DNA of 64,000 nucleotides from Escherichia coli (GCF_003334385.1 NZ_QOWN01000019.1), one strand, 5' to 3'; shown: positions 2,484 through 63,933, counted from the stretch's first letter. Made by a program: numbers and translations. Notes: generated by a model from the letters alone, not told the origin.

Positions 2484-4324
2484 TTATTGCGACTGCCGGA
2501 CACGTTGACCACGGCAAAACAACCTTATTGCAGGCGATTACTGGCGTAAATGCTGACCGTCTGCCGGAAGAAAAAAAGCGCGGCATGACCATCGATCTCG
2601 GCTATGCCTACTGGCCGCAGCCGGATGGTCGCGTGCCTGGTTTTATCGACGTTCCCGGTCATGAAAAGTTTCTTTCCAACATGCTGGCGGGCGTTGGTGG
2701 TATCGATCACGCGCTGTTGGTGGTGGCGTGCGATGACGGCGTGATGGCACAGACCCGTGAGCATCTGGCGATTTTGCAGCTGACCGGTAACCCGATGCTG
2801 ACAGTGGCGCTGACCAAAGCCGATCGCGTGGACGAAGCGCGTGTTGATGAGGTTGAACGCCAGGTAAAGGAGGTTCTGCGGGAATACGGTTTTGCTGAGG
2901 CAAAACTGTTTATCACCGCAGCAACCGAAGGTCGGGGAATGGATGCCCTGCGCGAGCATCTGCTTCAGTTGCCGGAACGCGAGCACGCCAGCCAACATAG
3001 TTTCCGCCTCGCGATTGACCGCGCATTTACCGTAAAAGGTGCCGGGCTGGTCGTCACCGGTACGGCGTTAAGCGGGGAAGTGAAGGTAGGCGATTCACTC
3101 TGGCTGACTGGTGTAAATAAACCGATGCGTGTACGTGCGCTGCATGCGCAAAACCAGCCAACAGAAACCGCCAATGCCGGGCAGCGTATCGCGCTTAACA
3201 TCGCGGGTGATGCGGAAAAAGAGCAGATTAACCGTGGCGACTGGCTGCTTGCCGATGTGCCGCCAGAGCCGTTCACACGGGTGATTGTCGAGCTTCAAAC
3301 CCATACACCGCTGACCCAGTGGCAGCCGCTGCATATTCACCACGCCGCCAGCCACGTCACGGGACGCGTTTCACTGCTGGAAGATAACCTTGCTGAACTG
3401 GTCTTCGACACCCCGTTATGGCTGGCAGATAACGACCGCCTGGTATTGCGCGATATCTCTGCCCGCAACACGCTGGCCGGAGCGCGCGTCGTGATGCTTA
3501 ACCCGCCGCGTCGCGGTAAACGTAAGCCGGAATATCTGCAATGGCTGGCGTCTCTTGCACGGGCGCAGAGCGATGCCGATGCGTTATCTGTTCATCTGGA
3601 ACGCGGCGCGGTTAACCTTGCGGATTTCGCCTGGGCGCGCCAGCTCAACGGCGAAGGGATGCGCGAATTGCTGCAACAGCCTGGTTATATTCAGGCTGGT
3701 TATAGCTTGTTGAATGCGCCGGTTGCCGCCCGCTGGCAGCGGAAAATTCTCGACACATTAGCGACTTATCATGAGCAACATCGCGATGAACCTGGCCCTG
3801 GGCGCGAACGTCTGCGACGTATGGCGTTGCCAATGGAAGATGAAGCGCTGGTACTGTTGCTGATTGAAAAGATGCGCGAAAGCGGCGACATCCACAGCCA
3901 TCACGGCTGGCTGCATCTGCCAGATCACAAAGCGGGCTTCAGCGAAGAGCAGCAGGCCATCTGGCAAAAAGCAGAGCCACTGTTTGGTGACGAACCGTGG
4001 TGGGTGCGTGACCTGGCAAAAGAGACGGGAACCGACGAGCAGGCAATGCGCCTGACTCTACGCCAGGCGGCGCAGCAAGGAATAATTACCGCGATCGTTA
4101 AAGATCGTTATTACCGTAACGATCGGATTGTCGAGTTTGCCAATATGATCCGCGATCTCGATCAGGAGTGTGGTTCAACCTGCGCGGCGGATTTCCGCGA
4201 TCGCTTAGGCGTAGGCCGAAAGCTGGCAATTCAGATTCTGGAATATTTTGACCGCATTGGCTTTACGCGTCGTCGTGGAAATGATCATTTATTGCGCGAC
4301 GCATTATTATTTCCGGAAAAATAA
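2480..4324 (+). CDS. selB: selenocysteine-specific elongation factor, 614 aa
   Basis: N-terminal GTPase motif [19 protein letters not shown]; length 614 aa. Confidence 0.95.
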
Positions 4325-21277: not shown

Positions 21278-21375
21278 GCCAGATGCGGCGTAAACGCCTT
21301 ATCCGGCCTACAAATTCTTCCAAATTCAATATATTGCAGAAATCATGTAGGCCTGATAAGCGTAGCGCATCAGGC
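21278..21375. repeat. REP/BIME cluster between ysaA and avtA
   Basis: gccagatgcggcgtaaacgccttatccggcctac ... gtaggcctgataagcgtagcgcatcaggc. Confidence 0.75.
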
Positions 21376-40043: not shown

Positions 40044-40277
40044 TCGCTAAATAATACAGCAACCTTTAATAATCTTCTGCTGAATAAAGATTATCTCATA
40101 TATTAATTTTATGAGATTTTTTTAGGATTATATCAAGGAGAAGAAACAAACTTATTAAGCTAGAATAGCCACGGGTGCTTGAGACTGTTTGTCTCAGGTA
40201 TTCACCGAAAGGCAGACAGAGAAAAGCCCCACCTGACTATAAATCAAAGTTTGTACTGACCCCAAAAAGTTGGACAG

Positions 40278-41117
40278 TTAAACACGAGGCATATAGGTCT
40301 GATTCCGATATTCAATTGGAGTCAGACCTTTTAATTTCAGGCTAATTCTTCTGCTGTTGTAGTATTCAATATATTCCGTAACAGCATCCTTCAGTTCGCT
40401 TATATTACTGAACTCATCAAGATAAAAACACTCCGACTTTAAGGTTCCAAAGAAACACTCCACCACAGCATTATCCAGACAATTGCCTTTTCTGGACATG
40501 CTTTGTTTAATACCATGTTCTTTAAGGATATTTTGATATCTTCTCATACGATACTGCCATCCCTGGTCAGAGTGCAGAACAGGATGCTCGTGATTGAATG
40601 CCTGATCGAGCATATTCTCAACCATGTTCATCACTGGTCTTTCCGAAAGGCTGTAAGAAATAACTTCGTTGTTGAAGAGATCTATTACTGGAGACAAATA
40701 CAGCTTGCGCCCATTGACTGCAAATTCAGTAACATCGGTAACCCACTTCTCGTTTGGCCGCGTAGCCTTGAAATCTCTTTGGAGAACATTAGGGGCGGTT
40801 TGCCCTACCTCTCCTCTGTAAGAGCGGTATCGCTTGACCTTAATCGCTGCTTTAAGTGAGAGGGTTCCCATCAGGCGCTGAACAGCTTTATGGTTAATCT
40901 GTTTCCCTTCTCGATGAAGAGACAGCGTTACCCTACGGTATCCGTATCGGCCTCTATTCTCGTGATAAATCTCACTAATACGCTTTTTAACGTCCGCATA
41001 CTTGTCAGGCTTGCTGAGAGCCTTTAGATGATAATAAAACGTACTGCGCGGTATCTCCGCAGCCCTGAGAAGCTCATCAAGAGGATAAAACTGCCTTAGC
41101 TCGTTGAGTACTTTCAC
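40278..41117 (-). CDS. insK: IS150 transposase OrfB (DDE integrase domain); native start may lie a few codons upstream / be reached by -1 frameshift from OrfA
   Basis: Track ORF 279 aa; rve-type catalytic domain. Confidence 0.88.
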
Positions 41118-41867: not shown

Positions 41868-42000
41868 GAGTCTTCGGCGGGAAATTATTCCCGCCTTACT
41901 TACGGCGTTGCGCATTCTCATTGCACCCAAATTTATTCTTCACAAAAATAATAATAGATTTTATTACGCGATCGATTATTTATTTCCTGAAAACAAATAA

Positions 42001-42030
42001 AAAAATCCCCGCCAAATGGCAGGGATCTTA
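42001..42030 (-). terminator. rho-independent terminator of cspA
   Basis: Minus-strand hairpin (atccctgcc/ggcggggat, one mismatch) followed by TTTTTT. Confidence 0.7.
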
Positions 42031-42053
42031 GATTCTGTGCTTTTAAGCAGAGA

Positions 42054-42266
42054 TTACAGGCTGGTTACGTTACCAGCTGCCGGGCCTTTAGCGCCGCTTT
42101 CGATGGTGAAGGACACTTTCTGACCTTCGTCCAGAGATTTGTAACCATCGTTCTGGATAGCAGAGAAGTGTACGAACACATCTTTAGAGCCATCGTCAGG
42201 AGTGATGAAGCCGAAGCCTTTGTCAGCGTTGAACCATTTTACGATACCAGTCATTTTACCGGACAT
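42054..42266 (-). CDS. cspA: major cold-shock protein CspA (70 aa)
   Basis: [21 protein letters not shown]... RNP1/RNP2 motifs. Confidence 0.97.
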
Positions 42267-42408
42267 AGTGTATTACCTTTAATAATTAAGTGTGCCTTTC
42301 GGCGATATGGCGTGCTTTACAGATTTTGAAGCGTTAAAGGAATGTGCACTACGAGGGGTATCAACGATAACTCTTGAAGGGACTTGCCTTACTACACTGC
42401 TTTAATGG

Positions 42409-42462
42409 TCTGTACGTCAAACCGTTGATGTGCATTAAGCCACGCATTGGCGGGTGATGCAA
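42409..42462 (-). promoter_or_regulatory. cspA promoter (-35 TTGCAT, 17-bp spacer, -10 CTTAAT) and cold-box at start of the long 5' UTR
   Basis: Minus-strand TTGCAT (42457-42462) and CTTAAT (42434-42439); cold box TGACGTACAGA (42409-42419); AT-rich UP-like region upstream. Confidence 0.8.
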
Positions 42463-53622: not shown

Positions 53623-53699
<77 letters not shown>

Positions 53700-53789: not shown

Positions 53790-53875
53790 GTAGGCCTGAT
53801 AAGACGCGTCAGCGTCGCATCAGGCAAATGTGCCGGCCATTGTCGGATGCGGCGCGACCGCCTTATTCGACCTAC
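53790..53875. repeat. REP/BIME cluster upstream of dppA
   Basis: gtaggcctgataagacgcgtcagcgtcgcatcaggc ... gccggccattgtcggatgcggcgcgaccgccttattcgacctac. Confidence 0.75.
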
Positions 53876-56085: not shown

Positions 56086-56190
56086 TGCCTGATGCGCTCC
56101 TCTTATCAGGCCTACGAAAATTCTGCAATGTATTGAATTTGCACGATTTTGTAGGCCGGATAAGGCGTTAACGCCGCATCCGGCATAAAC
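56086..56190. repeat. REP/BIME cluster between dppA and dppB
   Basis: gcctgatgcgctcctcttatcaggcctac ... gtaggccggataaggcgttaacgccgcatccggc. Confidence 0.8.
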
Positions 56191-60287: not shown

Positions 60288-60317
60288 CAAAACCGGGGCC
60301 ATGCGCTCCGGTTTACT
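60288..60317. terminator. hairpin between convergent dppF and yhjV
   Basis: aaaccgg ggccatgcgct ccggttt overlapping yhjV stop codon. Confidence 0.45.
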
Positions 60318-61584
60318 CAATCAGCTTCAACAGTGGCGACAAGCATAGCAAAATGCCGTACAGCAGAATCAGCCAGGCTTTAAATCCGCGAAGTTTTTCC
60401 AGTTGTGCGACTTTATAGATCAGGAAAAACGGAATGAGGCACGACACAATACCATATAACGGGCTTCCCAACTGAAAGAACACCAGCACCGATACACGAA
60501 ACGAAACCCAAATCGTCAACGTAATGACGATAAAAGCGCAGATCGCCAGAGTCAGCACGCGTGAGTTAATTTTCTTGGTATCAATAATTCGGCTTAACAG
60601 ATTGAGAATAATGCCTTTAATGGCCTCGTGGAAACCGAGATAAATGCCAAAGAATGCGGTCAGTACGGCAAAGATATTAAGCACCGTAGAGGTGATATGA
60701 ATGATATGCCCAGGGATCACCTGCGCGGCCAGCGCCAGTGCTGAGATATTTTGTTCAAAGGCAGAAACGGCTTCTTCGTGGCTAATTGAGAAGGTAAACG
60801 AAAAGGCAAAAAACAGGATCACCGCGATGAGCGTGATATAACTAATTCGGTGGGTACGCAGCGCGAGCCGGGTTGCCAGTACTTTATCCGCTTCCCGTTT
60901 ACGATAGGCAATATTCATTGGGTTAAGTACCTGAATAAATACTGCAGAAAAGAAGCAAAATGGAATGGTAAGCAAGACATCGCGGAAAAAGACGGAGGCT
61001 TGCGGGAAGGCGGTTATATTGGCGAAATTCCAGTGCGGGATCATCGCAAAACCGAACACGACAATAATCCCTACTTTGACCACCACCATTGGCCCGGAAA
61101 TCTTAAACAGTAATCGTTCACCACCAGACGCAATCGCCACCAGTACGGCGAAAATAGCGACTTTATAAAGTAGAGATTGTGAAAGATCGGCATCGGTTAA
61201 ACCGAAGGTTTTCAGGTACGAGGCGCTGTCGAAAACCACGGAGAGAGAGTAGATAAAAATCCCGTGGATAATCATCAAAAAGTAGATAACCCCGAGGAAA
61301 ATTCCCCAGTTCTTCCCCAGGTAATGACTGATAATATCGGTGTAGTCATTACAGGAATCGCTTTCAGAAAGGGTTTTTAAATAAATGTCCTGCACTACCC
61401 AGGTGGCAGGATAAGCAATGATCGCTGCGGTAATAAATACCCAAATTCCCTTCAAGCCAATTTGTACTGGCATCAGCACGGTTCCGGCACCAATCGCCAT
61501 GCCTATGCATAATAAAACCCAGCCGAAGTCGTAGCGTGTAAACGGCAATTTCTGATTGTGTTTCGATAGTGTGTTGTGCTGCAT
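60313..61584 (-). CDS. yhjV: amino-acid (Ser/Thr/Trp-type, HAAAP family) transporter-like membrane protein (423 aa)
   Basis: Native start [28 protein letters not shown]; polytopic. Confidence 0.85.
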
Positions 61585-61942
61585 AAAGTCCTGTCCAGAA
61601 AGAAGTCGGCCTCGCAAAAATGAATAAACCCAGTTTCTCTTGCGCAACAGGTGGAGAAGTCGAATACGCAGTATGTAAAAAATGAGGCAACAGATTCACT
61701 GGGGAGGTCGCGAGGAGGCGCAATTCTACAAAATTGCGCATTTCACTACCAGTCTGGAGTCAGCCCGGATATGAACTGCAACTATTGCAAATAAAGAAAT
61801 TAAGCTGGAAGGCATCGCGCAATGAGGAAGATTGCCGGGTGCTGACAGTAAAAAGCAATCGTAGAATCAGCGGCAAGCCGGAAAGGTTCCGGTGAGGCGC
61901 AATGTTGCGGGGGCTTTATCCCTGGTGGCATTGGTTGCTGGA

Positions 61943-62011
61943 GAGAGAAAACCCCCGCACGTTGCAGGTATGCACCTGACAACACCACGGGGGCTAATCT
62001 TGACTCTAGAC
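61943..62011 (-). ncRNA. rdlD: Rdl antisense RNA (antitoxin of ldrD), about 66 nt
   Basis: Minus-strand sequence gtctagagtcaagattagcccccgtggtgttgtcaggtgcatacctgcaacgtgcgggggttttctctc with terminal GC-rich hairpin plus U-run, as I recall Rdl RNAs; ends approximate. Confidence 0.65.
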
Positions 62012-62059
62012 CACTCAAGAATAGCCGCGAAACGTTGTCATTACAACACAGGCGGCTAT

Positions 62060-62167
62060 ATGACGTTCGCAGAGCTGGGCATGGCCTTCTGGCATGATTT
62101 AGCGGCTCCGGTCATTGCTGGCATTCTTGCCAGTATGATCGTGAACTGGCTGAACAAGCGGAAGTAA
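62060..62167 (+). CDS. ldrD: Ldr-family type I toxin (35 aa)
   Basis: MTFAELGMAFWHDLAAPVIAGILASMIVNWLNKRK; track ORF 61892..62167 is an upstream in-frame extension. Confidence 0.85.
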   Translation: MTFAELGMAFWHDLAAPVIAGILASMIVNWLNKRK

Positions 62168-62217
62168 CGTGTCATGCGGGCGTCAGGCTGCCGTAATGGC
62201 AATTTGCGCCCGGACCA

Positions 62218-62248
62218 GGCCGCAGGGGGGAAACTCTGCGGCCTTTTT
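62218..62248 (+). terminator. rho-independent terminator after ldrD
   Basis: ggccgcag ...loop... ctgcggcc followed by TTTTT. Confidence 0.7.
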
Positions 62249-62253
62249 CGTTC

Positions 62254-63933
62254 TTACTGCGGGTAAGGCACCCAGTCGCCGCCGTTCAGGCGAACGTACG
62301 GTTTATCCTGGTATTGAATAACTACTGCATTTGAGTTCTCGGAGACCGGTGCTGTTTGTGGCAACCCACTGGTGAGTTTTTTCCAGTCAACATTGTCTTC
62401 GGTGAAAATCTTGCCATCGAGAACGCGAACCACCAGATCGGAGATAGCCAGGAAGCTGCTCGGTTGTTCGATGACAATCGGTGCCCCCTGATGCGGTGCC
62501 TTCATGCCGAAGAATTTCACCCCAACGGGGACGTCGGTGATAGACGGGCTAGGGATATCACGTAGGCCAGATACCTGCATTCTGTCGCCCTTCAGCGCGC
62601 CGCCGTGTTCCGGCACCACGACCACCATCACTTTACGACCCGATTTCTCAAGTTCAGTAAAGAAGGCGTCCAGTTCATCAAAGAATTTCTGCGCCCGCGC
62701 TTTGTAATCCGCTGTTTTGCTGACCCCCGGATAATGGTTGCCGTCATGCAGTGGAAGCGTGTTGTAGAACGTGGCACTACGGCTGTTTTTATCTTTTTCG
62801 GTAACGTCCAGCCAGCGGTTAAGCACAGCGGTATCGTCATAAACCGGCGAACCATCAAAGCCCAGCAAAATAACCGGCAGATTTGTTTGATCCATCAATT
62901 CGCTCTGCATGCCGCCATTTTCGCGAACTTCTTTCAAAAAACCGCCGAACTGGCCGTTATGTCCCATCATCAGGTGCTGGGTAAAGCCCAGTTTCGAAAG
63001 GTTATCAAACAGATAGCAGTCGTTATTTGCCGGTTGATACAGATTAGTGTGCGAAGTCTGCCCGCAGCTGGCGCGCAGTAAACGGATCGCCGCCGGGCCA
63101 CTGTAGGAGGTGGCGGAGTTAAAGTTCTTGAACTCAATATCGAAATGCGACCACAGTGGATGCGACATCAACCCGGCGGCTTCTATATCCGACCAGGAAA
63201 GCGAACAGATGTTAATCACCAGTAGTTCAAATGGCTGAGCATCAGCGGGCAGCGAAGACGGGAAGGTCGATTTACGTTTCGCCTCCGCGTTATAGAAATT
63301 ATTCAGCCAGGCGTTAAGGTTCGCCGTTGTTGGCGGTGCAGTTTGTGCGGGCATATCACCCACTACCGGTGCGCCACCCGTCGCCGCAACGGTTGCCGCT
63401 GCGTTACCACCCGTCGTTGTTACAGTGGTCGTCGGTTGTCCGGCTGGCCACAAGGAGAAACTTGGTCCCGCCAGGGTAAGTACGTTCAGCCATAGCAGTA
63501 TGGCAACCACAAAAACGGTAATGCGAATCCATTGTGACAGGAATAACCAGGCCACTAATAAAACAAAAATGGCCCCAATCATCTGCCAGTTAATAAAGCG
63601 TGTGACAAGGTCGATTAAATAATCGGTACTGAACCCCGCCACCTGCGAACCCTGGCTCATTATGCTTTCCGGGCCAGGCAACCAGGTGTCATGCCAGAAC
63701 AAAGCAAAGCCGATCGGCAGGGCAATCCAGTGGCGCAAGCGATGCAGGCTGTAGCGCGGAAGGGGCATCAGCAGAAACGCGGCAAACACCAAATTGAGGA
63801 GCGGATGGAAGTTAAGATATCCCGCCCACAACAGGCCGAACTTAACCAGAAAATAGAAGTTCCAGCCGGAAAGGCCGCGCCAGTATTGCCAGAGGGAAGA
63901 AGGCATGGCGGTATTTTGCGTAAATTGAGTCAT
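62254..63933 (-). CDS. bcsG: cellulose phosphoethanolamine transferase BcsG (559 aa)
   Basis: N-terminal multi-TM region plus periplasmic alkaline-phosphatase-like domain; start ATGACTCAATTTACGCAAAAT. Confidence 0.9.
   Translation of the reverse strand: MTQFTQNTAMPSSLWQYWRGLSGWNFYFLVKFGLLWAGYLNFHPLLNLVFAAFLLMPLPRYSLHRLRHWIALPIGFALFWHDTWLPGPESIMSQGSQVAGFSTDYLIDLVTRFINWQMIGAIFVLLVAWLFLSQWIRITVFVVAILLWLNVLTLAGPSFSLWPAGQPTTTVTTTGGNAAATVAATGGAPVVGDMPAQTAPPTTANLNAWLNNFYNAEAKRKSTFPSSLPADAQPFELLVINICSLSWSDIEAAGLMSHPLWSHFDIEFKNFNSATSYSGPAAIRLLRASCGQTSHTNLYQPANNDCYLFDNLSKLGFTQHLMMGHNGQFGGFLKEVRENGGMQSELMDQTNLPVILLGFDGSPVYDDTAVLNRWLDVTEKDKNSRSATFYNTLPLHDGNHYPGVSKTADYKARAQKFFDELDAFFTELEKSGRKVMVVVVPEHGGALKGDRMQVSGLRDIPSPSITDVPVGVKFFGMKAPHQGAPIVIEQPSSFLAISDLVVRVLDGKIFTEDNVDWKKLTSGLPQTAPVSENSNAVVIQYQDKPYVRLNGGDWVPYPQ

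Follow-up and report, generated by a model that had tools for sequence, protein, structure and literature searches.

The ldrD/rdlD type I toxin-antitoxin pair of the LDR-D element of Escherichia coli and a predicted closed architecture of the ldrD mRNA

Escherichia coli K-12 carries Ldr/Rdl type I toxin-antitoxin pairs in its long direct repeats (LDR). In LDR-A, -B and -C, located between kdsA and chaA, each of the pairs ldrA/rdlA, ldrB/rdlB and ldrC/rdlC combines a gene for a 35-aa toxin with an Rdl gene 47-48 bp upstream on the opposite strand, a plan shared by ldrD. Overexpression of ldrD is toxic, with growth arrest and nucleoid condensation (Kawano 2002, as cited in PMC4147584 and PMC8309996), and the toxicity of overproduced LdrD is relieved by co-expression of RdlD, an RNA that overlaps the long 5' UTR of ldrD and not its ribosome-binding site (PMC4147584). 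LdrD is an alpha-helical membrane peptide causing nucleoid condensation within 2 min (PMC8309996). The ldrD mRNA is stable and RdlD is unstable (PMC4147584, PMC7373196, PMC8309996, PMC5416894). By analogy with mok, a hypothetical leader ORF, ldrX, has been invoked for repression (PMC4147584), while a review of 2021 calls the mode of action of RdlD unknown (PMC8309996).

Similar designs occur in several other systems. The hok/sok pairs (plasmid R1 and chromosomal hokA-E) share with ldrD/rdlD a small membrane toxin, a stable and highly folded toxin mRNA, and a cis-encoded antisense RNA, short and unstable, whose pairing site lies upstream of the toxin ribosome-binding site; they also share a proposed leader ORF (mok in one case, ldrX in the other) and a predicted 5'-3' fold-back that locks the full-length mRNA. 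However, there is no sequence homology between the two, Ldr_toxin being the only Pfam match of LdrD, and 3' processing and mok-like coupling were demonstrated for hok, not for ldrD. The Fst toxin of RNAI-RNAII (par of pAD1), in the Fst/Ldr superfamily, has, like LdrD, a length of ~33-35 aa, a single helix and a charged C-terminus. Overexpressed Fst condenses the nucleoid as Ldr does, and reviews group the two (PMC4147584, PMC8309996). The Fst antitoxin, however, pairs with a convergently transcribed mRNA at its two ends, 5' and 3', whereas rdlD and ldrD overlap divergently at the 5' end. In aapA1/IsoA1 and aapA3/IsoA3 of Helicobacter pylori, the full-length mRNA is kept inert by a 5'-3' long-distance interaction, and successive local hairpins mask the Shine-Dalgarno (SD) sequence during transcription (PMC6733600, PMC5416894). 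The two alternative closures that we predict for ldrD resemble those of aapA1 and aapA3, although neither the sequences nor the host are related. There, the toxin initiation region itself is covered by IsoA1, and a leader ORF is not invoked (PMC5416894).

We analyzed a stretch of 64,000 nucleotides of an E. coli genome (GCF_003334385.1, NZ_QOWN01000019.1), called the window below, to which all coordinates refer unless another source is named. All of the 2501 bases compared (2501/2501) are identical to positions 3698500-3701000 of MG1655 (NC_000913.3), the window being the reverse complement, with window position x equal to 3762147 minus the NC_000913.3 coordinate. A 651-bp query around ldrD/rdlD was 100% identical to many chromosomes of the E. 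coli K-12 lineage. The RefSeq record of MG1655 places here ldrD (b4453, 'small toxic polypeptide LdrD', 62060-62167, plus strand) and rdlD (b4454, 'antisense regulatory RNA RdlD', 61948-62011, minus strand; 61946-62011 in Rfam), flanked by yhjV (60313-61584) and bcsG (62254-63933), both on the minus strand. The layout of bcsG, ldrD, rdlD and yhjV in the PGAP-annotated MG1655 agrees with this record. The preliminary description of the window had proposed a type I ldrD/rdlD pair between yhjV and bcsG, and these are exactly the annotated features. We also observed that the longest ORF of yhjV (444 aa) extends the RefSeq gene (start at 61584, 423 aa) upstream by 21 codons to TTG 61647, the additional part covering 61585-61647 (minus strand).

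Because of the complete identity to MG1655 with its RefSeq features, the matches to Pfam, Rfam and PDB entry 5LBJ given below, and the K-12 paralogues of the same layout, we are very confident that the locus is LDR-D, the fourth long direct repeat of E. coli K-12, with the chromosomal pair ldrD/rdlD, and, on the strength of the published experiments, that the antisense RNA represses the toxin in the general sense. The locus is thus already known; its description dates from 2002, RefSeq annotates it, and it is represented by entries of its own in Pfam, Rfam and PDB.

The ldrD ORF (62060-62167, plus strand) has 35 codons and a stop, and its product, MTFAELGMAFWHDLAAPVIAGILASMIVNWLNKRK, has a hydrophobic helix and a basic C-terminus (NKRK). 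Residues 1-35 align with positions 1-35 of the 35 in Pfam model PF13940, Ldr_toxin (93.7 bits, E-value 6.9e-27), which places the peptide in the Ldr toxin family over its entire length, and the peptide is identical to chain A of PDB 5LBJ, the NMR structure of 'Small toxic polypeptide LdrD'. The proposal of a 35-codon ORF for a hydrophobic Ldr-type toxin at this very position thus proved right. The ORF is nested, in the same frame, in a 91-codon ORF that starts with GTG (61892-62167).

On the minus strand, the Rfam model RF01813 (rdlD) matched positions 61946-62011 over its whole length (1-66 of 66) with 87 bits, compared to the gathering score of 50, and an E-value of 4e-18, so that the RNA belongs to the RdlD family. 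This match is the outcome of the Rfam scan that the preliminary description had suggested. It had also reported a unit of about 66 nt on this strand, with a GC-rich hairpin and a U-run, some 50-120 bp upstream of the toxin; the full-length match lies 49 to 114 bp upstream. The 5' end of rdlD (62011) is 49 bp and its 3' end 114 bp away from the ldrD ATG (62060), antisense to the ldr 5' leader within the ~47-50 bp typical of such an arrangement, and rdlA-C are similarly spaced. The extent proposed earlier for the antisense RNA, about 61943-62011, agrees with RefSeq (61948-62011) and Rfam (61946-62011) except that its end at 61943 adds three bases of the U/C tail. RdlD is predicted to fold into a single-stranded 5' tail and a GC-rich hairpin ending in UUUUCU (-29.5 kcal/mol, z = -3.98), and none of 200 shuffled sequences (0/200) folded as well. 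Its complementarity to nt 74-139 of the leader (61946-62011) is perfect by construction, provided that the ldrD mRNA starts upstream of 61946. An RNase III dsRNA peak of ~21 nt, with 5,553 RPM, was reported in vivo for the rdlD/ldrD overlap (PMC7373196).

Two other readings of these elements have to be weighed. The real gene might be the 91-codon ORF (61892-62167), or another N-terminally extended form of which the 35-codon ORF is a truncation; the frame that begins at GTG 61892 is indeed uninterrupted in LDR-D and a few more of the loci. We consider this very improbable. The last 35 codons use up the Pfam model, leaving the upstream 56 codons outside the family, and both the solved structure and the RefSeq CDS have 35 aa. 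Indels of 1 to 6 nt before the ATG (~62047-62051), a 1-nt deletion in LDR-A/B/C and 1-6 nt in other species, shift the upstream frame, which is also interrupted by stops. Moreover, GTG 61892 falls within the SD of a short leader ORF, uORF1, and has no SD of its own, and the putative N-terminal coding part is occupied by the rdlD gene and its promoter. The earlier dismissal of the 91-codon ORF as an artificial upstream extension is therefore borne out by the limits of the Pfam model and by a frame not kept in LDR-A/B/C or other species. Still, the 5' leader may not be wholly untranslated, as a part of the 91-codon frame (from TTG 62000 or ATG 61970) coincides with the hypothetical 'ldrX'. In the same way, the minus-strand hairpin with its U-run might be a mere structural element, a terminator or a repeat, and no regulatory RNA gene at all. 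The combination of a GC hairpin and a U-run is generic, and the terminator scan listed a small part of the rdlD unit as terminator-like. We give this reading practically no credence, given the full-length match of the Rfam model, conserved promoter-like -35 and -10 boxes at the proper distance from the 5' end, the ncRNA annotated in RefSeq and the published Northern and dsRNA evidence (PMC7373196).

With respect to the related families, LdrD scored 13.8 bits against the Fst model (NCBIfam NF033608), compared to a cut-off of 26, which leaves it outside that family. The locus is not a member of the hok/sok family either: no Hok domain was found, and the Rfam sok model (RF01794) reached 24.2 bits compared to its threshold of 59 (E-value 0.02, search over 5 kb). 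This weak match, which we judged not significant, spans 61909-62062 (plus strand) of the ldrD leader and ends exactly on the ldrD AUG, a position that fits a hok-like leader layout.

Elsewhere in the window, at 40173-40312 (plus strand), the sok model matched with 70.1 bits (threshold 59), which indicates a second type I toxin-antitoxin locus; we take it to be probably hokA/sokA, which lies near cspA on the K-12 map. Further Rfam matches above threshold were the cspA thermoregulator (500.8 bits; 41999-42426, minus strand), a tRNA (53623-53696, plus strand), naRNA4 (CssrE; 53793-53872, minus strand) and two ES036 (CssrF; 56108-56150, minus strand, and 21312-21354, plus strand).

The ldrD/rdlD locus had at least one match in each of the complete E. 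coli genomes searched (5426/5426). The median of 4 places per genome agrees with the definition of an LDR element as a ~500-bp repeat that occurs several times in a genome and carries an ldr/rdl pair each time. K-12 carries the three further copies ldrA-C/rdlA-C, laid out alike, and the four-way alignment of LDR-A to -D, flanks included, has a mean column identity of 84%. LDR-D is a single copy at a chromosomal site separate from that of LDR-A/B/C. The latter have the same terminator and leader boxes as LDR-D and a leader identity of 88-92%, but the DNA of the CDS is only 67% identical. RdlD departs from RdlA-C at 61965-73, in the apical loop and upper stem, at 61985-86, and at 62004-09, which corresponds to nt 3-8 of RdlD. 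As judged from this comparison, the three patches are plausible specificity determinants.

Beyond E. coli, Rfam-positive rdl genes next to ldr ORFs were found in E. albertii, E. whittamii, Escherichia sp. E1V33, Citrobacter sedlakii and Pseudocitrobacter. Relatives were gathered by means of DNA patterns in genomes, and a metagenome scan added many more. We discarded most of the genome matches to 16-mers, which were fortuitous and came from unrelated taxa; many of the metagenome matches represented an unrelated terminator-like hairpin. From the relatives we assembled 60 distinct loci, and the 48 loci that encode 35-aa Ldr toxins made up the alignment used for comparison below.

Some of the relatives depart from the common type. 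At 1257-1635 of the Pseudocitrobacter vendiensis sequence L058, a premature TAG in the ldr ORF removes the basic C-terminus (…IVGW*), and this copy is probably inactivated. Eight metagenome contigs (L162, L167, L170, L070, L131, L133, L150 and L099) carry tandem repeats of ~455 bp with an Rdl-like antisense scaffold. With the Rfam rdlD model, L133 and L150 reached 54 bits, and L162 and L170 fell short of the threshold. The peptide that accompanies the scaffold is a different one, of 43-51 aa (MDFLKAVVLVVLTHIVAPLAVRYIE.NFPQQCVYETRGG...); it fell into no family of Pfam or NCBIfam and showed no similarity to LdrD by BLASTP, and the database sequences closest to it are labeled 'hypothetical protein' and come from Pluralibacter gergoviae. 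These peptides may represent an unnamed toxin family on an Ldr/Rdl chassis. In metagenome contig L073 (2423-3700) there are three tandem rdlD matches of 52-60 bits. Behind two of them, an Ldr-like leader is followed by a 30-aa peptide, MTLNEALLLAVVTSIVGPIVVALVRHFFKF, that has only the first three residues in common with Ldr. The copy at 3332 is followed by a sequence resembling the end of bcsG.

The consensus promoter scan detected no sigma-70 site at threshold for either ldrD or rdlD. Conservation among the 48 loci, however, starts abruptly at GTAGAATC/GTAGTATC (GTAGAATC at 61861-68), with low values upstream (0.46-0.53), and this onset points to a putative ldrD promoter on the plus strand with the -10 box TAGAAT (61862-61867) and no conserved -35. 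From the onset of conservation we place the transcription start of ldrD near 61873, which would give a leader of ~186 nt. The putative rdlD promoter (62018-62046, minus strand), read from the sequence, has the -10 box TATTCT (62018-62023) and the -35 box TTGTAA (62041-62046) with a spacer of 17 bp; it would lie within the ldrD leader, adjoining the ldrD ribosome-binding site. The boxes match the consensus at 8 of 12 positions (8/12), which is under the threshold of the scan, and in the other loci they are conserved or consensus-compatible (for example, TTGAAA, TTGTCA and TTGCAA for -35, and TATCCT for -10).

Downstream of ldrD, the terminator scan found an intrinsic terminator (62217-62250, plus strand) with an 11-bp stem (8 G-C pairs; 62217-62244) followed by the T-run TTTTTCGTTCT. 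The stem has 100% paired cells in the 48 loci and 2 compensatory pairs. It matches within a few bases the strong terminator placed earlier at 62218-62248. Taken together, the conserved -10 and the terminator suggest a full-length ldrD mRNA of ~378 nt (61873-62250, plus strand) with a 186-nt 5' UTR, the 35-codon CDS and an 83-nt 3' UTR that includes the terminator.

The leader contains ORFs of its own. The uORF1 mentioned above (61902-61979, plus strand; 25 codons, SD GGTGAGG at 61891-61897) begins 28 nt into the inferred mRNA and stops inside the segment complementary to RdlD. Its start codon is kept in 45/48 loci and its SD is nearly invariant; the peptide is not conserved, the length varying from 11 to 90 codons with frame shifts. 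The SD region doubles as the 5' partner of the fold-back described below. In all 48 loci (48/48), no stop codon interrupts the frame of TTG 62000 before the ldr start. This frame is fused with ldr in 28 loci, LDR-D among them, while in 17 others, including LDR-A-C with their 1-nt indel before the ATG, it ends at an ATGA overlap. In the remaining 3 loci it ends later, two ~19 nt and one ~97 nt past the ldr ATG. At the position of the TTG itself, only 37/48 loci have a start codon, two of the three frames are usually open across this stretch, and one of the 48 loci has no ORF with a canonical start that reaches the ldr initiation region. Thus, the published 'ldrX' idea is compatible with the alignment, which gives it equivocal support.

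The predicted structure of the full-length ldrD mRNA has a minimum free energy (MFE) of -182.3 kcal/mol. RNAalifold and the MFE fold agree on a stem-loop near the 5' end (GCCGGAA-agg-UUCCGGU, 61877-61893, plus strand), which is kept among the loci via compensatory changes (CCGGA/UCCGG, CCGGG/CCCGG, UCCCG/CGGGA). The two methods also predict a helix of 61906-13 with 61952-59 and a leader hairpin at 61990-62028 (plus strand), in which TTG 62000 is in the 5' arm. The apical loop of this hairpin (62004-62014) is complementary to the first 8 nt of RdlD, and both arms are present in the sense transcript only. The hairpin has 98.1% paired cells in the 48 loci over 12 pairs, 4 of them compensatory (for example, 62001/62017 is UA in 37 loci and CG in 10); the figures for this and the following structures are to be read with the caveat that the loci are kin by descent and the structures were derived from the same sequences, both of which inflate the apparent support.

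For the initiation region, we observed two alternative closures. The first is a local hairpin (62021-62059, plus strand), in which ATAGCCGC (62021-28) pairs with GCGGCTAT (62052-59), ending one base before the ATG, and an inner stem is made by 62034-38 and 62043-47. In the 48 loci, pairing reaches 97.7% in the outer and 96.7% in the inner stem, and the pair 62038/62043 covaries (CG in 23, UA in 21). This hairpin is the MFE form of 3'-truncated ldrD transcripts, and RNAalifold run with more sequences favors it over the long-range pairing of the initiation region. The second closure is a predicted fold-back of the 3' UTR (62177-62210, plus strand; RNAalifold and MFE), which brings 62177-62203 onto the initiation region (62034-62069) and joins 62205-62210 to 61896-61901, close to the 5' end. 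The three fold-back helices are 96.4%, 92.3% and 88.9% paired, compared to 37-45% with the partners slid. For the sets as a whole, the local helices are 94.9% paired compared to 35-50% when slid, with 9 pairs changed on both sides, and the long-range helices 94.2% compared to 37-45%, with 13 pairs changed on both sides; by these counts, the two sets have roughly equal support. The helix 61896-901/62205-10 is nearly invariant, which makes covariation uninformative for it either way.

Individual positions bear on the coexistence of the two closures. Within the fold-back, 62038/62199 is CG in 25 loci, UG in 21 and UA in 2, and 62043/62194 is AU in 23, GU in 14, GC in 7 and UA in 2. In the local stem, position 62038 (U/C) covaries with 62043 (A/G), and each can still pair with the 3' UTR by means of G-U wobble, the pattern expected if both conformations are under selection. 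Among the K-12 copies, identity is higher in the leader (88-92%) and the 3' UTR (~80%) than in the CDS (67%), which argues for constraint at the RNA level. A divergent, Pluralibacter-type class, whose leader, toxin and 3' UTR differ in sequence, was likewise predicted to close 5' to 3' and to pair its 3' UTR with the region just before the start codon. The ribosome-binding site and the AUG of ldrD were closed in every predicted form, full-length or truncated, with the RdlD site masked or not. As a model, the comparison of the 48 loci supports a closed ldrD mRNA, in which the initiation region is paired with either the local hairpin or the 3' UTR and the 5' end with the 3' end. In the literature searched we did not find this fold-back architecture described for ldr, though it may appear in Kawano 2002 or Kawano 2012, and a search for ldr together with long-distance interaction or ribosome profiling returned nothing specific. 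The closed architecture with its covariation support is possibly the sole new element here.

These predictions allow us to propose how RdlD might act. The mRNA of ~378 nt, transcribed from the plus strand, encodes LdrD, a 35-aa peptide of the inner membrane. RdlD, of 64-66 nt, is transcribed in the opposite direction within the ldrD leader and is complementary to leader nt 74-139; according to the published work, the two RNAs pair in vivo in a duplex cut by RNase III, and RdlD suppresses the toxicity of LdrD through prevention of translation. In nascent or 3'-shortened RNA, the initiation region would be shut by the local hairpin 62021-62059. In the full-length RNA, a hok-like fold-back would form, pairing 62034-69 with 62177-62203 and 61896-901 with 62205-10. 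Since the ribosome-binding site and the AUG are never free in the predicted folds, translation of LdrD would need an activating event. Ribosomes may enter from a leader ORF (uORF1 at 61902 and/or 'ldrX' at TTG 62000 or ATG 61970) and melt the closed initiation region. The 5' tail of RdlD would first touch the exposed loop 62004-62014, then zip over 61946-62011 and block this entry. We prefer this model, in which the RdlD duplex blocks leader-ribosome entry and the fold-back otherwise keeps the mRNA locked, but the preference is tentative and could quite well prove wrong, its details being much less certain than the identity of the locus.

Repression could instead be a purely structural switch, in which the hairpin 61990-62028 holds ATAGCCGC in the free mRNA, so that the initiation region is open, and the binding of RdlD frees ATAGCCGC to clamp GCGGCTAT over the ribosome-binding site. 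Both of the mutually exclusive helices required are supported in the 48 loci (61990-62003/62015-28 by 4 compensatory pairs, 62021-28/62052-59 by its 97.7% of paired cells), and masking the RdlD site does move the MFE fold of the full-length RNA from the 3' UTR fold-back to the local clamp. Masking the RdlD site, however, leaves the predicted accessibility of the ribosome-binding site and AUG unchanged (0.37-0.39). The clamp already has an advantage of 6-7 kcal/mol over the alternative in 3'-truncated RNA, and in full-length RNA the initiation region pairs with the 3' UTR instead, so no open state is predicted that RdlD could close. Thermodynamic folding thus gave no support to a simple switch driven by RdlD, which we keep as an unlikely rival. 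Another possibility is that RdlD acts mainly via RNase III cleavage and decay of the ldrD mRNA and not by a translation block. The abundance of the RNase III-dependent dsRNA from the overlap (~21 nt, 5,553 RPM) and an 'ldrD short' species seen only in the rnc mutant are in line with it (PMC7373196), but the levels and half-lives of full-length ldrD and of rdlD rose only slightly in that mutant (PMC7373196). Ldr/Rdl is also classed among the systems that 'inhibit protein synthesis' (PMC4147584), and a cleavage site more than 49 nt upstream of the ribosome-binding site would leave the CDS intact. We find decay as the main route distinctly improbable.

The value of the locus is that of a positive control: a 35-codon gene and a 66-nt antisense RNA were recognized from the raw sequence, and the 91-codon ORF was correctly rejected. 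For the family as a whole, the mRNAs of ldrD and of the Ldr/Rdl type in general might be locked by a conserved hok-like fold-back that alternates with a local clamp; toxin synthesis would then depend on leader translation and/or 3' processing, the activating step at which RdlD would intervene. This generalization, made from the model, is a possibility that we regard as somewhat doubtful. The prediction of a closed architecture does suggest concrete mutants with which the mechanism of RdlD, called unknown in reviews, may be approached.
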